DNA from: a virus
Reading direction: 5' to 3' (one strand)
DNA length: 64,000 nt
IMG/VR virus record: IMGVR_UViG_3300050138_000621
Span: 1-64,000 of that record
The translations under genes were made by a program, and so were the position numbers. Below the pieces are notes generated by a model. It had not been told where the DNA came from. It worked only from the letters and a program-made list of their open reading frames with translations, and ran no database searches. Shown here piece after piece: positions 2,392 through 39,588 of the stretch; position 1 is the stretch's first letter; each line of letters opens with the position of its first letter.

Positions 2392-4783
2392 GCGGCTTTG
2401 GGGCCCCCGAGGCCGCCGTACTGGGCATCTTCGGCGGCGCCGGACTTGGGGACGCTTCCGGCTTCGGCATCTTCGGCTCGGGAGGAGCCGCGGCGGGGTT
2501 CGACGGAGGCTTGGGAGGCTCGGCGTTCGCTGCAAGCGCGTTCGTCTGGGCGCTGCGGAGGGGGATGGCGCCTTCGGAGCCCGGGACCAAGGAGTGGGCC
2601 ATGTTTGGTGTGGAGCCCACTGGAAAGACGCGGCGCCGATCGCGTTCAGAAATTGCCTCTTGGCCGGGGTGGTACTTCTGAGTCTTGGCCTGAAGAAGCG
2701 CTTGGTCGGCCTGCTGCGGGTTGACCCCAAATCCCATCCCCGTCGAGATCTTGTGGATCCCACCCATCGGCGGCAGCGCCTCCAGCTTCTCGTGGAGCTT
2801 GCGCGTGAACGCCATCGCGTGCTCGTTCGACGGAAAGTGGGCCGTCATCTCGTCGCCACCTACCCGGAACAACTTCCCAGTACCCGGCGCGGCTTCATCG
2901 GCCGCTTCTCGCAGCGTTCTGCCGTAGGTGCGGATCGCGTCGTCGCCCATGTCGTGGCTGTGATCGTTCAGGGACTTGAGGTCGTTCAAGTCCATGCCCA
3001 CGTACACGCCCGGCTTGTTCTTGGAGCGAAACTCCTCCCACGCCTTCCTGTTGCCCAGGCCGGGGACCATCGGATCACCGTAAACGTGCTGGGTCATTCC
3101 CTCGGAGGTTCCGGCGGGGATGTGGCCGGCCGCCTCGGCGGCGCGTATGTGGGCGAGGAGGTCCTGGGCGTGGGGGGTGGACGCGGGATTGAGAGGGGTT
3201 GTGCCGGCGTCCGGGGAGGCCGTCTTGAGGCCAGGCGGTTGCCGCATTCCCTTCATGAGATCGCCGAACTGCTCCTCCATCTTGGCGATGGTCCCGGCCA
3301 GGTCCGGCGCCTTGTAGCGCAAGGTCGCGGCGCCGCTGCTGACGTTGGCCAGGATGGCCGCGGCCTCCTCGGGCGTGATGAGCTTGGCGTCCAGCAAGAC
3401 GTTGCCGTCGTGGAATTCGACGGTATGGGGCTCGTCGAAGCCAACGCGGTGGTAGTCGAACACCGGCGCGCGCACGGGGGCCGGCGGCGGGGGCGGCGCA
3501 TCGGGCTGCGGCTGCACTTCGTTGCCCTGGGGCTCGGGCGGCACGTACGGAGTCTCTTTGACGTCCAGCTCCGGGCTCTGCTGCATCGCCTGGATCATGT
3601 TGATCGTCGAGCTGGTCAGCGGGCCCTCGGGGATCGCCTTGGCGATCAGGCCGAAGTAGTCCTCCAAAATATGAACTGTATCGCCGATCAGCATGAACCG
3701 GCCGGCGAGGCGCGGTTCTCCGTTGATCTTCATGCTGACCGAATAAATGGTCGGCTTCCGAGGGTCGCCAAAGAGGATGGACGACCGCAAGTCGGTGAGG
3801 CTCTTGCGGAGCTGGATGCCCCACGAGTCCAGCAGGACCATCGGGTCGGTCTTCTTCACCTGCGAGCGGCCGACGCGGACGTCGTCGACGATCTTCTCGA
3901 AGTGGGCCAGGTACTCGTCGCTGGCCTCGGGCATCTCGGAGCGCATGAAATCCCGCAGCTCGCCCTTGTCGAAGGTCACGGCCTTCTCCAGGTACCGGCG
4001 GAGGGCGTCGACCGTCGTCGATACCATCTTTTTCTTCTTGGAGCCGTCGAGCGACTCCCGCTGCAGGGCCGCGCCGCCGGTCAGGGTGCTCGGCGCCGCG
4101 TCGTAGCTGCCGGCGGTGAGGGTTTTGGCGATCGGGTCCTCGACGATCGGGTTGTACACCCAGCCCAGCGCGCCACCGAGCTTTCGGGCGCGGGCCTCTT
4201 CCGGCAGCTCGCTCTTGAAGGCGGCTTCGAGGAGGCTGGACGTCTTCTTTTCGTTCGGGGTCTTGTCGAAACCGGCCGGGGCCTGCGGGTCCTCCAGCAG
4301 AATCGTGTCGCAGACCTTGTTGCAAGGGGTCCAAGTGGCCGCCAGCGCGATGGCCATGCTCTCTTTGAGGATGTTGCCTTCCCGGGACAGTGTGCTGCCC
4401 TCGATCGACCAGCGGACCAGCACCTTTTCGTCGTTCGCGACCTGATCACGGATGGAAGCCGCCAGGGCCATGGCCCCCGAGTGGCCGGCGCCGTCGAAAA
4501 GGCGGACGTGGCCAAAAACCAGGGGCTGGCGGACGCTCAACCAAGCCCGATGCTCCATGTCTGAGGTGCAATCCTTGGCCGAGAAGATCTTTTTTGCGTC
4601 CAGAACGACGCCGACCTTCTCCTCCCCGTTTGAGTCCTTAGCGTCCTTGTGCTCGTAATTCACGCTGGCAGTCCCGTCCTGAAAGGACGAGATGTCCAAG
4701 CCGTCGATCATCAGGCGCTCGCCGCTGCTGTCGATCGTCTCCGCGGCGAAGATGCCCGCCAAGATCATTCCAGTAGACGCCAT
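2360..4783 (-). CDS. prohead-protease-like N-terminal domain fused to a long linker and a GGDEF (diguanylate-cyclase-type) domain, with a Pro-rich tail
   Basis: 807-aa ORF. The N-terminus (AETIDSSGERL...VNYEHKD...WSIEGS) resembles the caudoviral prohead serine protease. Residues ~570-705 carry ordered GGDEF landmarks (PGLGNRKAW, MDLNDLKSLNDHSHDMGDD, RVGGDEM, STGMGFG, ADQALLQAK). Confidence 0.75.
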   Translation of the reverse strand: MASTGMILAGIFAAETIDSSGERLMIDGLDISSFQDGTASVNYEHKDAKDSNGEEKVGVVLDAKKIFSAKDCTSDMEHRAWLSVRQPLVFGHVRLFDGAGHSGAMALAASIRDQVANDEKVLVRWSIEGSTLSREGNILKESMAIALAATWTPCNKVCDTILLEDPQAPAGFDKTPNEKKTSSLLEAAFKSELPEEARARKLGGALGWVYNPIVEDPIAKTLTAGSYDAAPSTLTGGAALQRESLDGSKKKKMVSTTVDALRRYLEKAVTFDKGELRDFMRSEMPEASDEYLAHFEKIVDDVRVGRSQVKKTDPMVLLDSWGIQLRKSLTDLRSSILFGDPRKPTIYSVSMKINGEPRLAGRFMLIGDTVHILEDYFGLIAKAIPEGPLTSSTINMIQAMQQSPELDVKETPYVPPEPQGNEVQPQPDAPPPPPAPVRAPVFDYHRVGFDEPHTVEFHDGNVLLDAKLITPEEAAAILANVSSGAATLRYKAPDLAGTIAKMEEQFGDLMKGMRQPPGLKTASPDAGTTPLNPASTPHAQDLLAHIRAAEAAGHIPAGTSEGMTQHVYGDPMVPGLGNRKAWEEFRSKNKPGVYVGMDLNDLKSLNDHSHDMGDDAIRTYGRTLREAADEAAPGTGKLFRVGGDEMTAHFPSNEHAMAFTRKLHEKLEALPPMGGIHKISTGMGFGVNPQQADQALLQAKTQKYHPGQEAISERDRRRVFPVGSTPNMAHSLVPGSEGAIPLRSAQTNALAANAEPPKPPSNPAAAPPEPKMPKPEASPSPAPPKMPSTAASGAPKPPTTPKQPKAA

Positions 4784-34057: not shown

Positions 34058-35842
34058 ATGTCCCGTCGCTTCGCCAATTTCGTTTCTTGCCACGTCCATC
34101 CGAACAGCCTCGACAGCGGATCGACCCCGGAGTCGTTCGCCGAGCGAGAGGCTGAGCTGGAGACCGGTGCCCTTACCTGCACCGATCACGGCACCCTCCA
34201 GGCCGCGCGCAAGATTTACGACCTCGGCAAGGAGAAGGGGCTGACGCCGATCGTTGGCATCGAGGCGTACTTCCGGGATGACGAGTGCAGCATCCTCACT
34301 GCCAACGGCTACCAGAAGAACGAGCGCGGCGGGTTCATCAGCGCTCCCAAATACTCGCACATTACTTTGCACGCAATGGACTACACCGCGTACCGGTGCA
34401 TGGTCCGGCTGATCTCGCGCGCCGACACCCGCCTCGAAGACGACAAGCTTCGGATGGAGCCCGCCCACCGGAAGATGGGGAGCGAGCGGAAGGCTTTGTT
34501 TCGTTGGTCCGACCTGGAGGAGCTGGGCACGTACAACGTGACGGCGACCTCGGGCTGCATGACGGGGATCTGCAAGCGCCACATCTTCGACAACGACGAC
34601 CCGAAGACGGCGATCCAATACTTCGAGCGCCTCAAGGCCACGTTCAAGCCCGGCAATTTCTACGTCGAGCTGAATCCCCACGATACCAGCCACGACTGGA
34701 TCCAAGGCGTGTTCATCACGATGATCGACGGGACCGAGCACAAGCTCTACGACGGCAAGATCGTGATGACGGACGCCGGGGAGATCCGGGCCGGGCAGTT
34801 GGCGAAGGAGTGGACATTCGGGAAGCACAACGTCCTCAAGTCCATCAAGGACCGCAGCAAATGGCGGGAGATGGCCGAGGCAAAGATCGTTAAGGTGGAG
34901 CAACGCGAGGGGTTCGAGCGCAACGAGTGCCGACCCTGGGCACAGGACGGCAACTACGAGGCCGCCTTGAACCGCTTCATGTTCATTCTGGCGAAGAAGC
35001 ACAGGGTCCCAATCACCCTCGGGGACGACTCGCACTACTCGACCCCGGATGCGGCCATCGTCCAGGACGTTCGCCTGGCCCAGAACGGGCCCTGGCGCTT
35101 CTATACCGGCGGCCCGCACAACACCTACCACCGGATGACGAGCGACGAGGCCTGGACCCACTTCCAATCCATGCCGGGCGTTGGCGAGAAGGAATTCGAG
35201 AGCTGGATCGGCAACTCCCACGACCTCGCGAGCCGCTTCAAGGACTTCAAGTTCGAGTCGGCGCCGTCGTTGCCGACCAAGTTCTACGAGACGGAGTACC
35301 AAAAGCGGCCTTGGTACGTGGCAGGGAAGGCCGACAACAGCGTCCGCTACACCATGGAGCTGATCCGTAAGCAGGGCCGGATGCGCTGGGACGACGCGAA
35401 GTACGTCAGACGTCTCAGGGAAGAGATCGACCTGCTGCACGGTAACGGGACGATTGACTTGTTGCCGTATTTTATGATCGACGAGGACGTTTGCTCCACT
35501 TACGAGCTGGCGGAGGAATTGACGGGCCCGGGCCGAGGTTCGGCGGCCGGCGCCCTGATCTCGTTCCTCCTCGGGATCACTCACGTAGATCCGTTACGTT
35601 TCGACCTCTCCCTCGATCGGTTCTTGACGAAGGACCGGATTGCGAGCGGCAAATTGCCGGACATAGACCAGGATCTCTCAAGCCGCGACCTTCTAACTGG
35701 CGGTGTCAGTTACGTCGAGATCGAGCTGGACAACGGTACGAAGAGGATCGTCCGGGCCTCGGCCCAGGTCACCACGGACGAAGGCGATGTCACCGTCCAG
35801 GAAGCGTTCGACCGAGGACTCGACATTCGGAGTTGGGCATGA
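34058..35842 (+). CDS. dnaE: DNA polymerase III alpha (DnaE) N-terminal fragment: PHP domain through the catalytic PDIDxD motif
   Basis: CHVHPNSLDSGS...TDHGTLQ (PHP), GPGRGSAAGALISFLLGITHVDP, LPDIDQDL. Ends with a TGA that overlaps the next ATG (ATGA). Confidence 0.8.
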   Translation: MSRRFANFVSCHVHPNSLDSGSTPESFAEREAELETGALTCTDHGTLQAARKIYDLGKEKGLTPIVGIEAYFRDDECSILTANGYQKNERGGFISAPKYSHITLHAMDYTAYRCMVRLISRADTRLEDDKLRMEPAHRKMGSERKALFRWSDLEELGTYNVTATSGCMTGICKRHIFDNDDPKTAIQYFERLKATFKPGNFYVELNPHDTSHDWIQGVFITMIDGTEHKLYDGKIVMTDAGEIRAGQLAKEWTFGKHNVLKSIKDRSKWREMAEAKIVKVEQREGFERNECRPWAQDGNYEAALNRFMFILAKKHRVPITLGDDSHYSTPDAAIVQDVRLAQNGPWRFYTGGPHNTYHRMTSDEAWTHFQSMPGVGEKEFESWIGNSHDLASRFKDFKFESAPSLPTKFYETEYQKRPWYVAGKADNSVRYTMELIRKQGRMRWDDAKYVRRLREEIDLLHGNGTIDLLPYFMIDEDVCSTYELAEELTGPGRGSAAGALISFLLGITHVDPLRFDLSLDRFLTKDRIASGKLPDIDQDLSSRDLLTGGVSYVEIELDNGTKRIVRASAQVTTDEGDVTVQEAFDRGLDIRSWA

Positions 35843-38800
35843 AGATCACGTCGTTGAAGGTCGTCTCGGACGCAGATAGCGGATGGCTCCATCGCAGGTT
35901 CGGGGACCATGTCGCTCAGATCTCGGTCGAGACCAAGATGAAGATGAGGCTCGCAGTCCGCGACGTCTCCAGGCAGCAGCGCGGGTTCGTCACCTCCGAG
36001 ATCGAGACGCTGGCCAAGAAGTTTCCGCAGCCCCCACAGGGAGTGGAGGATCTAGACTTCGTCCTTGGATACGACAACGACGAAGGGCACCAGCAGGGCG
36101 CCATCGAGGTCGATGAGGCGATCCAGGAGTACGTTCGCCTCTACCCCAAGGACTGGGAGATCGTGCAGCAGTGCCTCGGGCTGGCGCGCCAGCGCTCCCG
36201 TCACGCCTGCGCCTACGTCATAGGAAACGAGCCAATCGAGCAGATGATCCCGCTCACCACCGTGGGCGGGGTGCGAGTCACGGCTTACAACGCCCCGGCC
36301 GTCGAGGCTGTTGGCGGGCTCAAGATGGACTTCCTCGTCGTCAACTCGCTGATGGACATCGGCGACTGCATCAAGCTGGTCCAGAAGCGCCATCGGGAGG
36401 TCGAGTACAAGGAGGCCGCGCTCAGCGGGCTTCGCGTGCCCCGGTTCCGCCAAATCCCCATCCCCGGCGGCGGCCTGGCGGACATCTGGAACCTGCCGGA
36501 CGACCAAAACGTGTTCACCGACGTGTCCCAGGGCCGCACGGAGACTGTTTTTCAATTTAATACGGAATCAGCCCGCAAGTGGTTGAAGCACTTCAACTAC
36601 AGGAAGGCCAACGGCAACTACGCGATCGACTCGATCGCGACGATGGCCTACTTCACGGCCCTCGATCGCCCTGGCCCCCTCGACGCGTACGTGTCCAACC
36701 CCGAAGAGGAGGACACCAAGCACAACATGCTCGTCGAGTACGCGCGCCGCGTCCGCGGCGCCCCGAAGAGCCCCGACATCCTGCCGATCTTCGACGAGCT
36801 GCTGCCGCACATGAACGGGATCATGATCACGCAGGAAGCCCTTCAATACATGTACCAGCGCCTCACGGGGTGTTCTGGTCCGGAGGCCGAGGACTTCCGC
36901 TCGAACATAGCGAAAAAGAAGATGGCCAAGGTCGAGAAGGCCTACCTGCCGTTCATCGAGTCCGCAACCAAGACGATCGGCAAAGAGAACGCCGAGGCCG
37001 TGTGGAAGAACTTCATCACCTTCGGCCAGTACGGATTCAATCAATCTATTGATGGAGACACAATCATCTCCACATGCGATGGAACGATGAGGCGACTCCG
37101 GGACTACAACGCGGGCGACAGCGTGAACGCGGTGGACGATCGCGGCAACGCGATCAGCACGGCAGTAATGGCCCTTCACGATCACGGAATGCTGGAGGGG
37201 TTCGAGGCGACGTTCGACGATGGATATTCATTGATCATTTCGTCCGATCACAAATTTCTCACCGCCCAGGGACAAAAGCCGCTGTACGAGATCGTCGCGC
37301 GGGGGATGGAGGTTCTGTCTAGTGGCCGCCAAGCTTATGGATGGATGGACGGCACGTTGCGGGGAGGGGTTCCTAACGAGACGGTCATTGCAGTCTCACC
37401 TGAATCAATGCACGGACTGCATGAACCACCGGGGTATGGGCCGCAAGCCCGACCCTCGCGGATACCTGGTGAGGTGCGGGACGAAGGTCAAGAAAGCGAC
37501 GGACGTAAAAACCCATCAGAGCATTTGCGAACGGTGCTGGGAGATGTTGTGGCGCCGGCCAAACAACGCTGGCTGGGCAGCTCGCTGCGGGCAGATCTGT
37601 CCTGGAAAGAGGGATCGTGCGGAACATCACCGGACGTGCTCAGTGTGCGCGGCGGTGAAGAAAGAAAACATCAAAGTCAGGCAGGCGAAGTTGGCGGCAA
37701 GCCCAGGGTTCCGAGAAATGTGTTCGGAAACGGCCAAGAAAACTTCCATGCGGAGGGACATTCAGCTTCAGCGCGCGGGGAGGCTGAAGGCTTGGAGAGA
37801 CGGCAATCCGGAGAAGTTTCAAGAGATAGTCAAAAAACTGACCCACTCCCCAAAGAACTCGAAGGCGGAGGCATGGCTTCGACAGGAGGGGATCCTAATG
37901 TGGCCAGATGCTCAAATTGTTTGTGGGACGGAGCGGAAGCAGGTGGATTTTGTAAGCCCGGATCACAAAGTGTGGGTGGAGATGGACGGAGGATTCCACT
38001 TCTTCCCTCTGACGAAGGGGAGGAAGGCGACGCCTGCAGAACACCTGGAGTACGTCCAGGGGCGGGACGCGATGCTCAAAATGGAAGCGTTGCGCCGGTC
38101 AGATGTGACATTGATCCGAATATCTTGCGAGTGTTTCAGGGGAAACTCGAAGAGAAAACTGAAAGACGAGTGGCTCGGGACACTTACGCAAATGCTCCAC
38201 TTTCCTCAACCGGGGATTTGGTGCTTAGGCGAATTGTACAAGTCCGTTCTGTGGGCCCAAGACGGATGTACGATCTTGAGGTCTCCCATCCCAAGCACAA
38301 TTTTGTTCTCCCGAACGGAGTGGTCACCTCCAATAGCCACGCCGTCTGCTACTCCGTCATCGGCTACGCCTGCGCCTACCTGAAGCACCACTACCCGCTG
38401 GAATGGTGGACCTCGGTTCTCTCCAACGCCTCGAAGAACGAGGTCTCCGACAAGTTTTGGAAGCATTGCGGGCAGCTCATACGCCTCCCCGACGTCACGA
38501 AGTCCGGGGCGAAGTTCACCATCTCCGGGGAGCACATCCAGGCCCCGCTCAACATCATCAAGGGCGTCGGCGACGGCGCCGACAAGCAGCTCTCGAAGTA
38601 CGCTCCCTACACCGACATTCTCGACTTCTGTCGCAAGATCGAGAAGCACCGCATGGACGGCGGCGGCTACGTCATGAAGACGGTGAAGTACAAGGACAAG
38701 GACAACAAGGTCCTCAATCCCGAGACCGGCCGAATGGTAGCGACCGATGCCATCAAGGAGGAGCGAACGTTCAAACGGGGCCCCAACACTCTCAATGCGG

Positions 38801-39588
38801 GCGTCATCAAGGTGTTGATTGCCTCGGGCGCCATGGACGGCCTCTTCTCCGAGAATGTCCTCCTCGAAGAGCAGATGACGGAATACGAAAAGGCGATGGC
38901 TGCCGCGGAAACCGAGACCAACATAGCAACGGCGCCCGCCGGAAAGACCGTCCGCCCCATTAAGCCCAAGAAGGTGGATCCGAGCGAATTCAACCTGAAT
39001 GCTTTACAGCGGTACCAGTCCCGCAAGGCAGTGTTGCCGATTTACGGAGCCGACCTCATTCCCATGGTGGTCCGCTCGGGCAAAGCCAACGGCCTCAAAC
39101 AGTACCCTGGGCGTGCACTTATGGAGTGGATCTCCCCGTTCAACGGGAAGGAGAGCATCGTCGAGCTGATTGGCGCAGACGCCCTGTCACACGACGAGGA
39201 TTTCATCGTCAAGGACAAGAAATCGGTCAACGTGGCGGTCGCCGCGTACATCGAAGAGGTGGAGATCCGTAAGTACGGGCCGCTGCTAAAAGAAATGGTT
39301 AAGGTCAAGCTCGACGTCGAGGGCGCTCGGTTCGAGTTCGTCAAGTTCTCCGGTAAAACTGGGGTAGTCGCGGACTGTTTCAGGCAGCCGTTGCAGGGCG
39401 CGGTCGCCGTTGTGATCCTCAACAAATGGACCAACGATCGGCCGTTTGGGCCCGAGGACGTGCTCGTTGTGGAGCCACCAATCAACGTGAAGACACCTGA
39501 CCCGGACCCGGCGCCTGCGGACGTCGAGCAAGCTTTGGACAACCGGCAACCATCGGATGAGGTCGATTGGACCGGGCGTTCGCTATAG
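35839..39588 (+). CDS. dnaE: DNA polymerase III alpha (DnaE) C-terminal fragment, interrupted by an intein
   Basis: ATG 35839 inside ORF 35491..39588. FGDHVAQISVETKMKMRLAVRDVSR, RHACAYVIG, GGLKMDFLVVNSL, FGQYGFNQ[intein]SHAVCYSVIGYACAYLKHHYP. Confidence 0.8.
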   Translation: MKITSLKVVSDADSGWLHRRFGDHVAQISVETKMKMRLAVRDVSRQQRGFVTSEIETLAKKFPQPPQGVEDLDFVLGYDNDEGHQQGAIEVDEAIQEYVRLYPKDWEIVQQCLGLARQRSRHACAYVIGNEPIEQMIPLTTVGGVRVTAYNAPAVEAVGGLKMDFLVVNSLMDIGDCIKLVQKRHREVEYKEAALSGLRVPRFRQIPIPGGGLADIWNLPDDQNVFTDVSQGRTETVFQFNTESARKWLKHFNYRKANGNYAIDSIATMAYFTALDRPGPLDAYVSNPEEEDTKHNMLVEYARRVRGAPKSPDILPIFDELLPHMNGIMITQEALQYMYQRLTGCSGPEAEDFRSNIAKKKMAKVEKAYLPFIESATKTIGKENAEAVWKNFITFGQYGFNQSIDGDTIISTCDGTMRRLRDYNAGDSVNAVDDRGNAISTAVMALHDHGMLEGFEATFDDGYSLIISSDHKFLTAQGQKPLYEIVARGMEVLSSGRQAYGWMDGTLRGGVPNETVIAVSPESMHGLHEPPGYGPQARPSRIPGEVRDEGQESDGRKNPSEHLRTVLGDVVAPAKQRWLGSSLRADLSWKEGSCGTSPDVLSVRGGEERKHQSQAGEVGGKPRVPRNVFGNGQENFHAEGHSASARGEAEGLERRQSGEVSRDSQKTDPLPKELEGGGMASTGGDPNVARCSNCLWDGAEAGGFCKPGSQSVGGDGRRIPLLPSDEGEEGDACRTPGVRPGAGRDAQNGSVAPVRCDIDPNILRVFQGKLEEKTERRVARDTYANAPLSSTGDLVLRRIVQVRSVGPRRMYDLEVSHPKHNFVLPNGVVTSNSHAVCYSVIGYACAYLKHHYPLEWWTSVLSNASKNEVSDKFWKHCGQLIRLPDVTKSGAKFTISGEHIQAPLNIIKGVGDGADKQLSKYAPYTDILDFCRKIEKHRMDGGGYVMKTVKYKDKDNKVLNPETGRMVATDAIKEERTFKRGPNTLNAGVIKVLIASGAMDGLFSENVLLEEQMTEYEKAMAAAETETNIATAPAGKTVRPIKPKKVDPSEFNLNALQRYQSRKAVLPIYGADLIPMVVRSGKANGLKQYPGRALMEWISPFNGKESIVELIGADALSHDEDFIVKDKKSVNVAVAAYIEEVEIRKYGPLLKEMVKVKLDVEGARFEFVKFSGKTGVVADCFRQPLQGAVAVVILNKWTNDRPFGPEDVLVVEPPINVKTPDPDPAPADVEQALDNRQPSDEVDWTGRSL
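37045..38334 (+). mobile_element. intein (430 aa) in dnaE at the conserved GFNxSH site
   Basis: Starts SIDGDTIIST (block A, Ser1). Block B is IISSDHKFLT. Blocks F/G are RRMYDLEVSHPKHNFVLPNGVVTSN, followed by +1 Ser. The extein junction restores FNQSHA. Confidence 0.75.
37322..38383 (+). CDS. nested endonuclease gene in the +1 frame of the dnaE intein: three Cys/His fingers plus a Vsr/DUF559-like nuclease core
   Basis: 353-aa ORF (ATG at 37337). Three repeats of RCG-x10-13-H-x3-C-x2-C. QVDFVSPDHKVWVEMDGGFHF...GRDAML...LIRIS resembles the DUF559/Vsr fold. The tail beyond ~38200 is probably fortuitous read-on. Confidence 0.55.
   Translation: MAAKLMDGWTARCGEGFLTRRSLQSHLNQCTDCMNHRGMGRKPDPRGYLVRCGTKVKKATDVKTHQSICERCWEMLWRRPNNAGWAARCGQICPGKRDRAEHHRTCSVCAAVKKENIKVRQAKLAASPGFREMCSETAKKTSMRRDIQLQRAGRLKAWRDGNPEKFQEIVKKLTHSPKNSKAEAWLRQEGILMWPDAQIVCGTERKQVDFVSPDHKVWVEMDGGFHFFPLTKGRKATPAEHLEYVQGRDAMLKMEALRRSDVTLIRISCECFRGNSKRKLKDEWLGTLTQMLHFPQPGIWCLGELYKSVLWAQDGCTILRSPIPSTILFSRTEWSPPIATPSATPSSATPAPT
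39577..39588 (+). promoter_or_regulatory. 12-nt element CGTTCGCTATAG
   Basis: Exact match. Its TAG is the dnaE stop. 27 nt upstream of ATG 39616. Confidence 0.6.

Follow-up and report, generated by a model that had tools for sequence, protein, structure and literature searches.

The DNA analysed here is a 64,000-nucleotide stretch (positions 1 to 64,000 of the IMG/VR virus record IMGVR_UViG_3300050138_000621, hereafter the window), in which a phage dnaE gene harbors an intein and the intein, in turn, embeds a nuclease gene on the same strand and in another reading frame. The host open reading frame (ORF), located at 35491..39588 (+), is uninterrupted across 37045-38334 in both the ORF listing and the translation, the true dnaE start being most likely the ATG at 35839; Pfam recognizes DNA_pol3_alpha, DNA_pol3_finger, and HHH_6 in this long ORF, as in a DnaE-type polymerase. 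A second listed ORF of 353 codons (37322..38383) occupies the +1 frame relative to the host. Both frames are therefore stop-free for about 1 kb, as had been noticed in a first reading of this DNA made without database searches (the sequence-only reading), while the remaining (third) frame contains 20 stops across 37045-38400. The same reading had described the region as less rich in guanine and cytosine (GC) than its surroundings, and the measured values agree (0.53-0.58 over the intein versus 0.59-0.66 in the flanks; about 60% for the whole window). The features of the locus, with the evidence for each, are the following:

35839..37044 (+): dnaE N-extein (palm/finger part), ending in ...FGQYGFNQ; Pfam DNA_pol3_alpha and DNA_pol3_finger, gapless junction alignment to intein-less phage DnaE
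37045..37326 (+): N-terminal splicing domain of the intein, host-frame residues 1-94 (Ser1, SIDGDTII, SSDH block B); translation, Pfam Intein_splicing/Hint, AlphaFold2 (AF2) model, codon-position identity
37308..37312 (+): GGAGG Shine-Dalgarno sequence, 9 nt before GTG 37322 and inside the end of the N-intein coding sequence; sequence, counterpart in relatives
37322..38383 (+): putative homing-endonuclease gene, +1 frame, 353 aa (alternative start ATG 37337); ORF, homologues, purifying selection in this frame, AF2 model
37327..38214 (+): host-frame intein linker, residues 95-390, in the nuclease gene's -1 register, stop-free and otherwise unconstrained; AF2 model, no Pfam domain, 0 stops versus 9.8 expected
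37343..37648 (+): three zinc-finger repeats C-x12-H-x3-C-x2-C, a presumed DNA-binding module; sequence, alignment, AF2 model
37859..38239 (+): nuclease core, residues ~180-306, with D209, E220, D222, H226, and D249; invariant columns, Foldseek, BFVD, sub-threshold DUF559
38215..38334 (+): C-terminal splicing domain of the intein, residues 391-430 (...LVLRRIVQVRSVGPRRMYDLEVSHPKHNFVLPNGVVTSN), the same DNA encoding the tail of the nuclease ORF; AF2 model, all codon positions conserved
38335..39588 (+): dnaE C-extein, beginning with SHAVCYSVIGY...; Pfam HHH_6, gapless junction alignment to Mx1 DnaE

The intein and the nuclease gene embedded in it

In the host frame the intein starts with SIDGDTII, whose Ser1 is the N-terminal nucleophile, proceeds through a block B represented by SSDH within IISSDHKFLT (with Ser where Thr is usual), and ends with MYDLEVSHPKHNFVLPNGVVTSN followed by Ser, the C-terminal junction being ...NGVVTSN|SHAV. 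Ser1 and block B are kept in relatives, and Asn430 and Ser+1 are found in all of them. As judged from these residues, 37045-38334 reads as a Ser1...Asn/Ser+1 intein in phage dnaE, with the nucleophile, block B, and C-terminal Asn of the class 1 Hint fold. In the homologue P0017 the Pfam Intein_splicing profile scores 40.5 bits, exceeding its curated cut-off.

The boundaries were assessed by splicing the protein in silico, joining the 47 residues that precede 37045 to the 54 that follow 38334. The resulting 101-aa junction aligns in one gapless piece with the intein-less DnaE of Myxococcus phage Mx1 (59% identity, 99% coverage) and reaches at least 80% query coverage in 293 phage records; at the DNA level it reads ...GGATTCAATCAA|AGCCAC..., and the insertion point, FN(K/Q)|SH, falls in the conserved YGFNKSH motif. 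The intein boundaries are thus correct, and intein-less alleles exist. A blastn search of the region returned only a C-extein similarity of about 60-84 nt, to Mx1 and Gordonia phages. A known group I or group II intron is excluded, since no Rfam family, group I introns included, matches the region.

The AF2 model of the host-frame intein, built from a four-sequence alignment, is confident in two parts only, namely residues 1-94 (predicted local distance difference test, pLDDT, of 66-86, in beta strands) and residues 391-417 (75-89). The linker of about 295 codons lying between the two splicing domains is predicted to be unstructured (pLDDT 26-37), and Pfam finds no domain in its host-frame translation. 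The sequence-only reading, which had located the intein and its splicing blocks and had called its central 300 or so host-frame codons featureless, is upheld on both counts.

The product of the +1 frame, by contrast with the host-frame linker, is predicted to be folded (mean pLDDT 80.6, confident to about residue 320). It has 11 homologues with E values of 1e-55 to 1e-72 in a collection clustered at 90%, and its relatives comprise 167 clusters (50% identity) at E<=1e-3, 74 of which at <=1e-10; a tblastn search of the nuclease against 50,697 phage records gave no match. Each of the three finger repeats (C13/H26/C30/C33, C52/H65/C69/C72, and C89/H102/C106/C109) is modelled as a beta-hairpin plus a helix. 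The number of fingers varies from 0 to 3 among the homologues, and distant relatives carry Ros/MucR zinc fingers at the same position. The core contains the motif VDF...E.DG..HF...RD...LIR, and D209, E220, D222, H226, and D249, putatively catalytic, are invariant across the nuclease alignment; the spacing of 11 between D and E equals that from Asp51 to position 62 of Vsr (numbering of PMC2677866), as matched by eye without an alignment. The best PDB match found by Foldseek is 1vsr, the E. coli Vsr (probability 0.91, E 0.034, template modelling score 0.48 on the target), and BFVD yields phage homing endonucleases and restriction endonucleases (probability 1.0, E 2e-4 to 1e-2, about 125 residues, root-mean-square deviation 3-5 Å), both matches being modest. 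Based on the model, the alignment, and the motif, we consider the +1 ORF a genuine and conserved nuclease gene, with three zinc fingers and a predicted Vsr-like restriction-endonuclease fold. This sustains the earlier view of a convincing +1 protein. The proposed assignment to three fingers and a Vsr/DUF559-like core holds for the fingers, the core motif, and the fold, and fails for membership by sequence profile: the structure searches that had been suggested returned 1vsr and the BFVD entries, and the profile searches returned nothing above threshold. The Vsr/DUF559 assignment hence relies on fold and motif, because the profile matches are all sub-threshold.

In relatives, (A)TAGGAG precedes by 8-12 nt an ATG opening MPKRK..GW..CG, and most of them have both the ribosome-binding site and the start codon. 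In L005, L009, L033, and L036 the +1 frame opens just 0-9 nt ahead of the nuclease ATG; this suggests that the nuclease is independently initiated, and a fusion to the N-intein is excluded in these loci. In some relatives a short hairpin pairs the Shine-Dalgarno sequence of the nuclease (e.g., GTTCTCC...GGAGAAC) before the ATG, inside the host ORF (L002:215-260, L005:3945-3990, L006:3950-3995, and L036:370-415; z -2.2 to -2.9). No sigma-70-like promoter was found in the region, and its single terminator-like site is within chance expectation. At the other end of the gene, distant nuclease relatives cease to match at residue ~307, before the tail that overlies most of the C-intein, and only the intein-associated ones match to residues 320-333. 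From 38322 to 38383 the window's nuclease enters the C-extein with a low-confidence tail rich in Pro, Ser, Thr, and Ala (WSPPIATPSATPSSATPAPT).

Selection on the two frames

Given the nuclease frame, a stop in the host frame is possible only where T is the last base of a nuclease codon and the next codon begins with AA, AG, or GA. When synonymous codons were permuted so that neither the nuclease protein nor its codon set changed, the 2000 shuffles of the window had a mean of 9.8 host-frame stops and none was stop-free, against the 0 stops observed; in the same analysis the third frame has 15 stops. Although T occupies only 15% of the third positions of the window's nuclease gene, its absence is confined to the stop-making contexts: it occurs at 0/80 codons preceding AA, AG, or GA, versus 38/213 elsewhere (p 2.7e-6) and 13/94 before other codons starting with A or G (p 2.4e-4).

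To place this in a broader frame, 46 related loci were retrieved from collections of viral, metagenomic, and genomic sequences, and their N-intein, nuclease, and C-intein were placed by tblastn; these loci are metagenomic and represent lineages that are not entirely independent of each other. Besides the window, 28 distinct loci have both intein halves in one frame and the nuclease in the +1 frame, with 0 host-frame stops over 346-429 codons and a linker GC of 0.36-0.62. The per-locus shuffles (28 loci) predict 5-25 stops, and at most 0.15% of them are stop-free. Pooling 28 loci (the window included and the near-duplicate L008 left out), third-position T is found at 0/2526 codons preceding AA, AG, or GA, versus 427/2079 before other codons starting with A or G (p 8.5e-160). 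The related loci do not represent one recent clone, as the pairwise nuclease identity is mostly 35-70%, with third positions near saturation.

Two members of the same family, L001 (in dnaE) and L003 (in another host gene), act as internal controls. They have 14 and 11 host-frame stops, respectively, and the shuffles predict 12.4 and 11.5; together they exhibit no avoidance of third-position T (25/147 versus 21/138, p 0.75). Both are genuine fractured genes of the type in Dassa et al. (2009): the N-fragment terminates some 100-110 residues after the start of the intein, and the C-intein is preceded by an ATG. We conclude that the open host frame is kept by selection and not by GC. The sequence-only reading had held both that a GC-driven shadow ORF was a weaker explanation here and that the need for read-through would account for selection on the host frame; the stop avoidance seen in 28 loci, at low GC as well, and missing from the split L001 and L003 bears out the two statements. 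The constant frame relation between N- and C-intein across loci was also considered as evidence of read-through and was rejected, since the indels of a coding nuclease gene come in multiples of three in any case.

The nature of the constraint changes along the intein. Nucleotide identity at host-frame positions 1/2/3 of the N-intein, across 22 relatives, is 0.61/0.72/0.36; in the linker it is 0.55/0.61/0.38 at the positions of the nuclease frame; and in the C-intein it is 0.69/0.81/0.60 at those of the host frame, all three positions being conserved because the nuclease ORF runs over the C-intein. Selection thus shifts from the host frame to the nuclease frame and then to both. Amino-acid identity in the linker is 0.44 in the nuclease frame versus 0.23 in the host frame (for the pair L032/L035, 71% versus 35%). 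This profile across relatives, of the kind that the first reading had recommended, reveals amino-acid selection on the nuclease frame in the linker, with the host frame merely kept open. As for the composition of the linker, its hydrophobic content is the same as in the shuffles, and nothing beyond the absence of stops was seen; an excess of polar residues may be, at least in part, a by-product of the replacement of would-be stops.

Alternative readings and a possible mechanism

The reading that we favor, and hold to be quite probable, is that of a contiguous, cis-splicing phage DnaE intein invaded by a homing endonuclease gene of the free-standing type, which lies out of frame between the two splicing halves. 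The locus might instead be a fractured gene with a split intein of the kind reported by Dassa et al. (2009), whose C-terminal fragment is translated from an internal start and spliced in trans, the openness of the host frame then being irrelevant. The close relatives L001 and L003 are truly split, with an ATG at the homologous position, where the window has a GTG (38171), an NTG codon from which a separate C-fragment might conceivably be started; besides, the 3' end of the nuclease overlaps the C-intein exactly as in fractured genes. However, if read-through were dispensable, stops should accumulate as they did in L001 and L003, yet they are absent from 28 lineages, and on this ground trans-splicing initiated internally is disfavored. 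A conserved internal start of the C-fragment was sought across the open-frame loci and was not found (K, D, N, or H occupies the position in L006, L009, L024, L026, L033, and L044), the window lacks a good ribosome-binding site before 38171, and the host-frame stop that follows the N-intein in fractured genes occurs nowhere in 37045-38334. We therefore regard a split intein as improbable here.

Much less credit can be given to the idea that the nuclease is made as an N-intein fusion through programmed +1 frameshifting, or that it is an in-frame domain displaced by assembly or sequencing indels. It is true that the +1 frame of the window is open for 87 nt upstream of GTG 37322 and that a distant relative, P0147, has an in-frame fusion of N-intein and nuclease. 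Nevertheless, the same frame offset recurs in about 28 independent assemblies, with nuclease genes of varied length, which excludes two compensating sequencing indels; the ribosome-binding site and the start are conserved, and the four loci whose +1 frame opens at or just before the ATG leave no room for a fusion. No slippery motif was noticed, although no dedicated search was made. Lastly, the open host frame could be a chance shadow ORF arising from base composition, in a window of about 60% GC with little third-position T. We consider this explanation refuted, given that no shuffle of the window is stop-free, that its third frame is full of stops, that relatives at 36-41% GC are likewise open, that the avoidance is limited to three stop-making contexts, and that the loci compared are divergent.

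Besides the GTG at 38171, several points weigh against the interpretation of a cis-splicing intein with an independent nuclease gene. On the intein side, the penultimate residue is Ser, a deviation from the usual His, and the Pfam Intein_splicing/Hint match in the window (E 6e-7) scores 29.8 bits, below the curated cut-off of 35.8. On the nuclease side, every sequence-profile threshold is missed by the family: DUF559 is sub-threshold in Pfam (best E 0.0072 and 0.019; 0.12 for the window), and PDB sequence-profile searches with the +1 product, with 3r3p and 1vsr among the targets, gave no match. PHROGs returned for the same product only weak matches, none significant, to a family of unknown function (E 8e-4) and to one annotated as HNH (E 5e-3); hhalign of the nuclease alignment against an unverified E. 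coli Vsr sequence gave nothing, a result of little weight. Moreover, the start in the window is a GTG with a 9-nt spacer, the hairpin observed in relatives is not significant there (z +0.7), and the nuclease ORF runs 20 codons beyond the usual stop of its homologues (...SPTE*). Finally, splicing, independent initiation, translation of the +1 frame, cleavage, and homing are steps that we infer.

If the cis-splicing reading is correct, the ribosomes translating dnaE would read through the nuclease gene in its -1 register, producing a disordered tether of about 295 residues that joins the N-terminal (~94 aa) and C-terminal (~40 aa) splicing domains. The two halves might then dock like those of a tethered split intein, excise the intein, and ligate ...GFNQ to SHAV.... 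The nuclease would be produced separately, from its own GGAGG/GTG start within the intein ORF, and would presumably cut the intein-less dnaE of co-infecting phages at YGFN(K/Q)|SH, the repair of the cut allele copying intein and nuclease gene together. Stops in the host frame (third-position T before AA, AG, or GA) would be purged by selection because DnaE needs the read-through, the amino acids of the linker being otherwise free. It is also a possibility that, in those relatives in which the start of the nuclease is sequestered by the hairpin, host-frame ribosomes crossing it gate the translation of the nuclease; if this were true, the dose of endonuclease would be coupled to the synthesis of the polymerase.

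Known systems, related cassettes, and significance

The sequence-only reading knew of no described arrangement of this type. This is no longer tenable: the arrangement is rare but described. Gosselin, Arsenault & Gogarten (bioRxiv 10.1101/2025.01.02.630785) reported inteins of actinobacteriophages whose in-frame middle is unstructured and whose endonuclease genes are antisense LAGLIDADG, antisense Vsr-like, or frame-3 endonuclease VII-like. Phillips, DeSimone & Gogarten (bioRxiv 10.64898/2026.09.14.751524) described a LAGLIDADG gene lying in the +2 frame of a cyanobacterial dnaX intein, where selection depends on the frame. Both preprints cite Gorbalenya 1998, on which we rely, as cited there, for a report of such out-of-frame or antisense genes in contiguous inteins. 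According to Gosselin et al. (bioRxiv 10.1101/2025.01.02.630785), Vsr-like genes in inteins had been reported, before their own antisense cases, in split form only. The window's intein shares with these non-canonical inteins the contiguous host ORF, the unstructured in-frame stretch between confident splicing domains, the folded endonuclease encoded by an overlapping ORF with its own Shine-Dalgarno sequence, and the purifying selection on the endonuclease frame with a relaxed host frame. It differs from them in that its nuclease, Vsr-like and equipped with zinc fingers, is encoded on the same strand and in the +1 frame within a phage DnaE, in that the 3' end of the nuclease covers the C-terminal splicing domain (the DNA being constrained in both frames), and in that split siblings occur within its family.

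The split version of the arrangement is that of Dassa et al. 2009 (PMC2677866), who described fractured genes with split inteins and Vsr-like endonuclease genes, three DnaE loci included, in which a stop after the N-intein is followed by a non-coding spacer of 27-51 nt. As in those genes, the hosts are phage DNA-metabolism genes including DnaE, a Vsr-like endonuclease gene lies on the same strand between N- and C-intein, its 3' end overlaps the start of the C-intein coding sequence (in the window, the ORF runs to 38383 across 38215-38334), and hairpins sequestering the ribosome-binding site occur upstream of the start, here in relatives. L001 and L003 fit that description. Unlike fractured genes, the window and 28 relatives have neither stop nor spacer, and the host ORF is continuous and under selection. 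The nuclease itself resembles the Vsr-like homing endonucleases of the I-Bth0305I/EDxHD family (Taylor et al. 2011, PMC3239194; PDB 3r3p) in combining an N-terminal DNA-binding module with a C-terminal Vsr-like domain, in residing in phage mobile intervening sequences, and in the conserved D...E.D...H...D pattern of the EDxHD type (PMC2677866, PMC3239194), fitted by eye. It has zinc-finger repeats where I-Bth0305I has NUMOD helix-turn-helix motifs, and neither a sequence nor a fold match of the +1 product to 3r3p was recovered, the best PDB match being 1vsr. A further comparison is offered by ShiLan (Arsenault et al. 2025, PMC11855218), where an out-of-frame HNH gene lies in a phage DNA methylase without an intein. 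There too a homing endonuclease gene is out of frame in a stop-free host ORF, and its GTG start lies a few bases past the beginning of the insert; however, ShiLan has no splicing domains and the insert stays in the mature protein, whereas here the intein would remove it.

The cassette appears at three host-gene sites, which indicates mobility: the DnaE site YGFNK|S, a second gene with ...NAY|S...N|SET..HFYP, and a third in L012. The second host (L003, L007, L008, L010, and L038) has the junction ...RDR.NAY|S...N|SET..HFYP, and proteins related to it bear the JGI name "RNA polymerase specialized sigma subunit"; the third is a 1554-aa ORF. Pfam named neither of the two. In a more distant subgroup (L013, L014-16) the nuclease lies in the other frame and the gene is also split. 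At the same DnaE site (GYGFNR|TLHDN...), L047:3001-5340 encodes P0147, whose N-intein is fused in frame to the zinc-finger and nuclease domain and which ends there; P0147 is followed by a gene for a Pyr_excise homologue and by neither a C-intein nor a C-extein. The cassette may be in a third state here, or may have decayed. The open-frame family is found on contigs of 1 to 459 kb. In L001, in L002 (251-1117, then 1114-2517), and in the P0001 contig, automated gene calling breaks the polymerase ORF where the nuclease gene lies, so that open-frame loci look fractured in annotation, and annotation-based counts of "split" inteins may be inflated.

Two further breaks were observed in dnaE. In the window, the gene is also broken upstream of the intein, into ORFs 34058-35842 and 35839 onwards, which share an ATGA overlap. 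Relative to L043 and L020, which are not split, an extra tail of about 47 aa (GGVSYVEIELDNGTKRIVRASAQVTTDEGDVTVQEAFDRGLDIRSWA*) is present in the upstream ORF and an extra head of about 12 aa (MKITSLKVVSDA) in the downstream one, exactly at the break, where there are no intein blocks and no inserted gene. By analogy with Aeh1 NrdA and with SbcD in Dassa 2009, this break resembles an intein-less fractured gene after the loss of its endonuclease. L001, a 173-kb relative, has a second fractured dnaE site (2961-3889), with a 255-aa ORF that gives a faint DUF4379 zinc-ribbon match and lies between a PHP fragment and a fragment beginning with a C-intein (MKIVAAVEIGVEDVYDLSVEHDDHSFQLSAGPVAHN|CAYVI); the window is unbroken at that site (RHACAYVIGNEP).

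As to the origin of such elements, the Gosselin and Phillips preprints (10.1101/2025.01.02.630785; 10.64898/2026.09.14.751524) propose that a free-standing endonuclease gene secondarily invades a mini-intein. It is conceivable, and we advance it only tentatively, that the family described here stands, as a living intermediate, between contiguous inteins and fractured genes. A Vsr-like gene might have entered a mini-intein without breaking the host frame, been locked in by selection, been carried to phages with a GC as low as 36%, and decayed at least twice to split inteins (L001 in dnaE, L003 in the second gene). A frame-preserving entry is plausible in a high-GC phage because codons ending in T are rare there.

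To this rare kind of arrangement the locus adds a DnaE intein whose Vsr-like gene lies on the same strand in the +1 frame, and it links the arrangement to the fractured genes of Dassa et al. 2009. In the intein literature compared, we found no counterpart for such a gene in a contiguous DnaE intein, for a broad environmental family of such inteins, for an explicit codon-level demonstration of stop avoidance, or for open and split siblings in one family. The class of inteins with hidden endonucleases is thereby extended to a type of nuclease new to it and to large phages from the environment; automated annotation splits or misses such genes. With open and split cassettes side by side, the model of split-intein origin of Dassa 2009 becomes directly testable, and the combination of Ser at positions 1 and +1, halves on a long tether, and natural split siblings might be of interest to protein engineers. 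These loci also represent an unusually clean case of two-frame coding, one frame being selected for a protein and the other for the absence of stops alone (0/2526 across 28 lineages), and they show that read-through of the intein is indispensable in these phages, the intein being more than merely tolerated.

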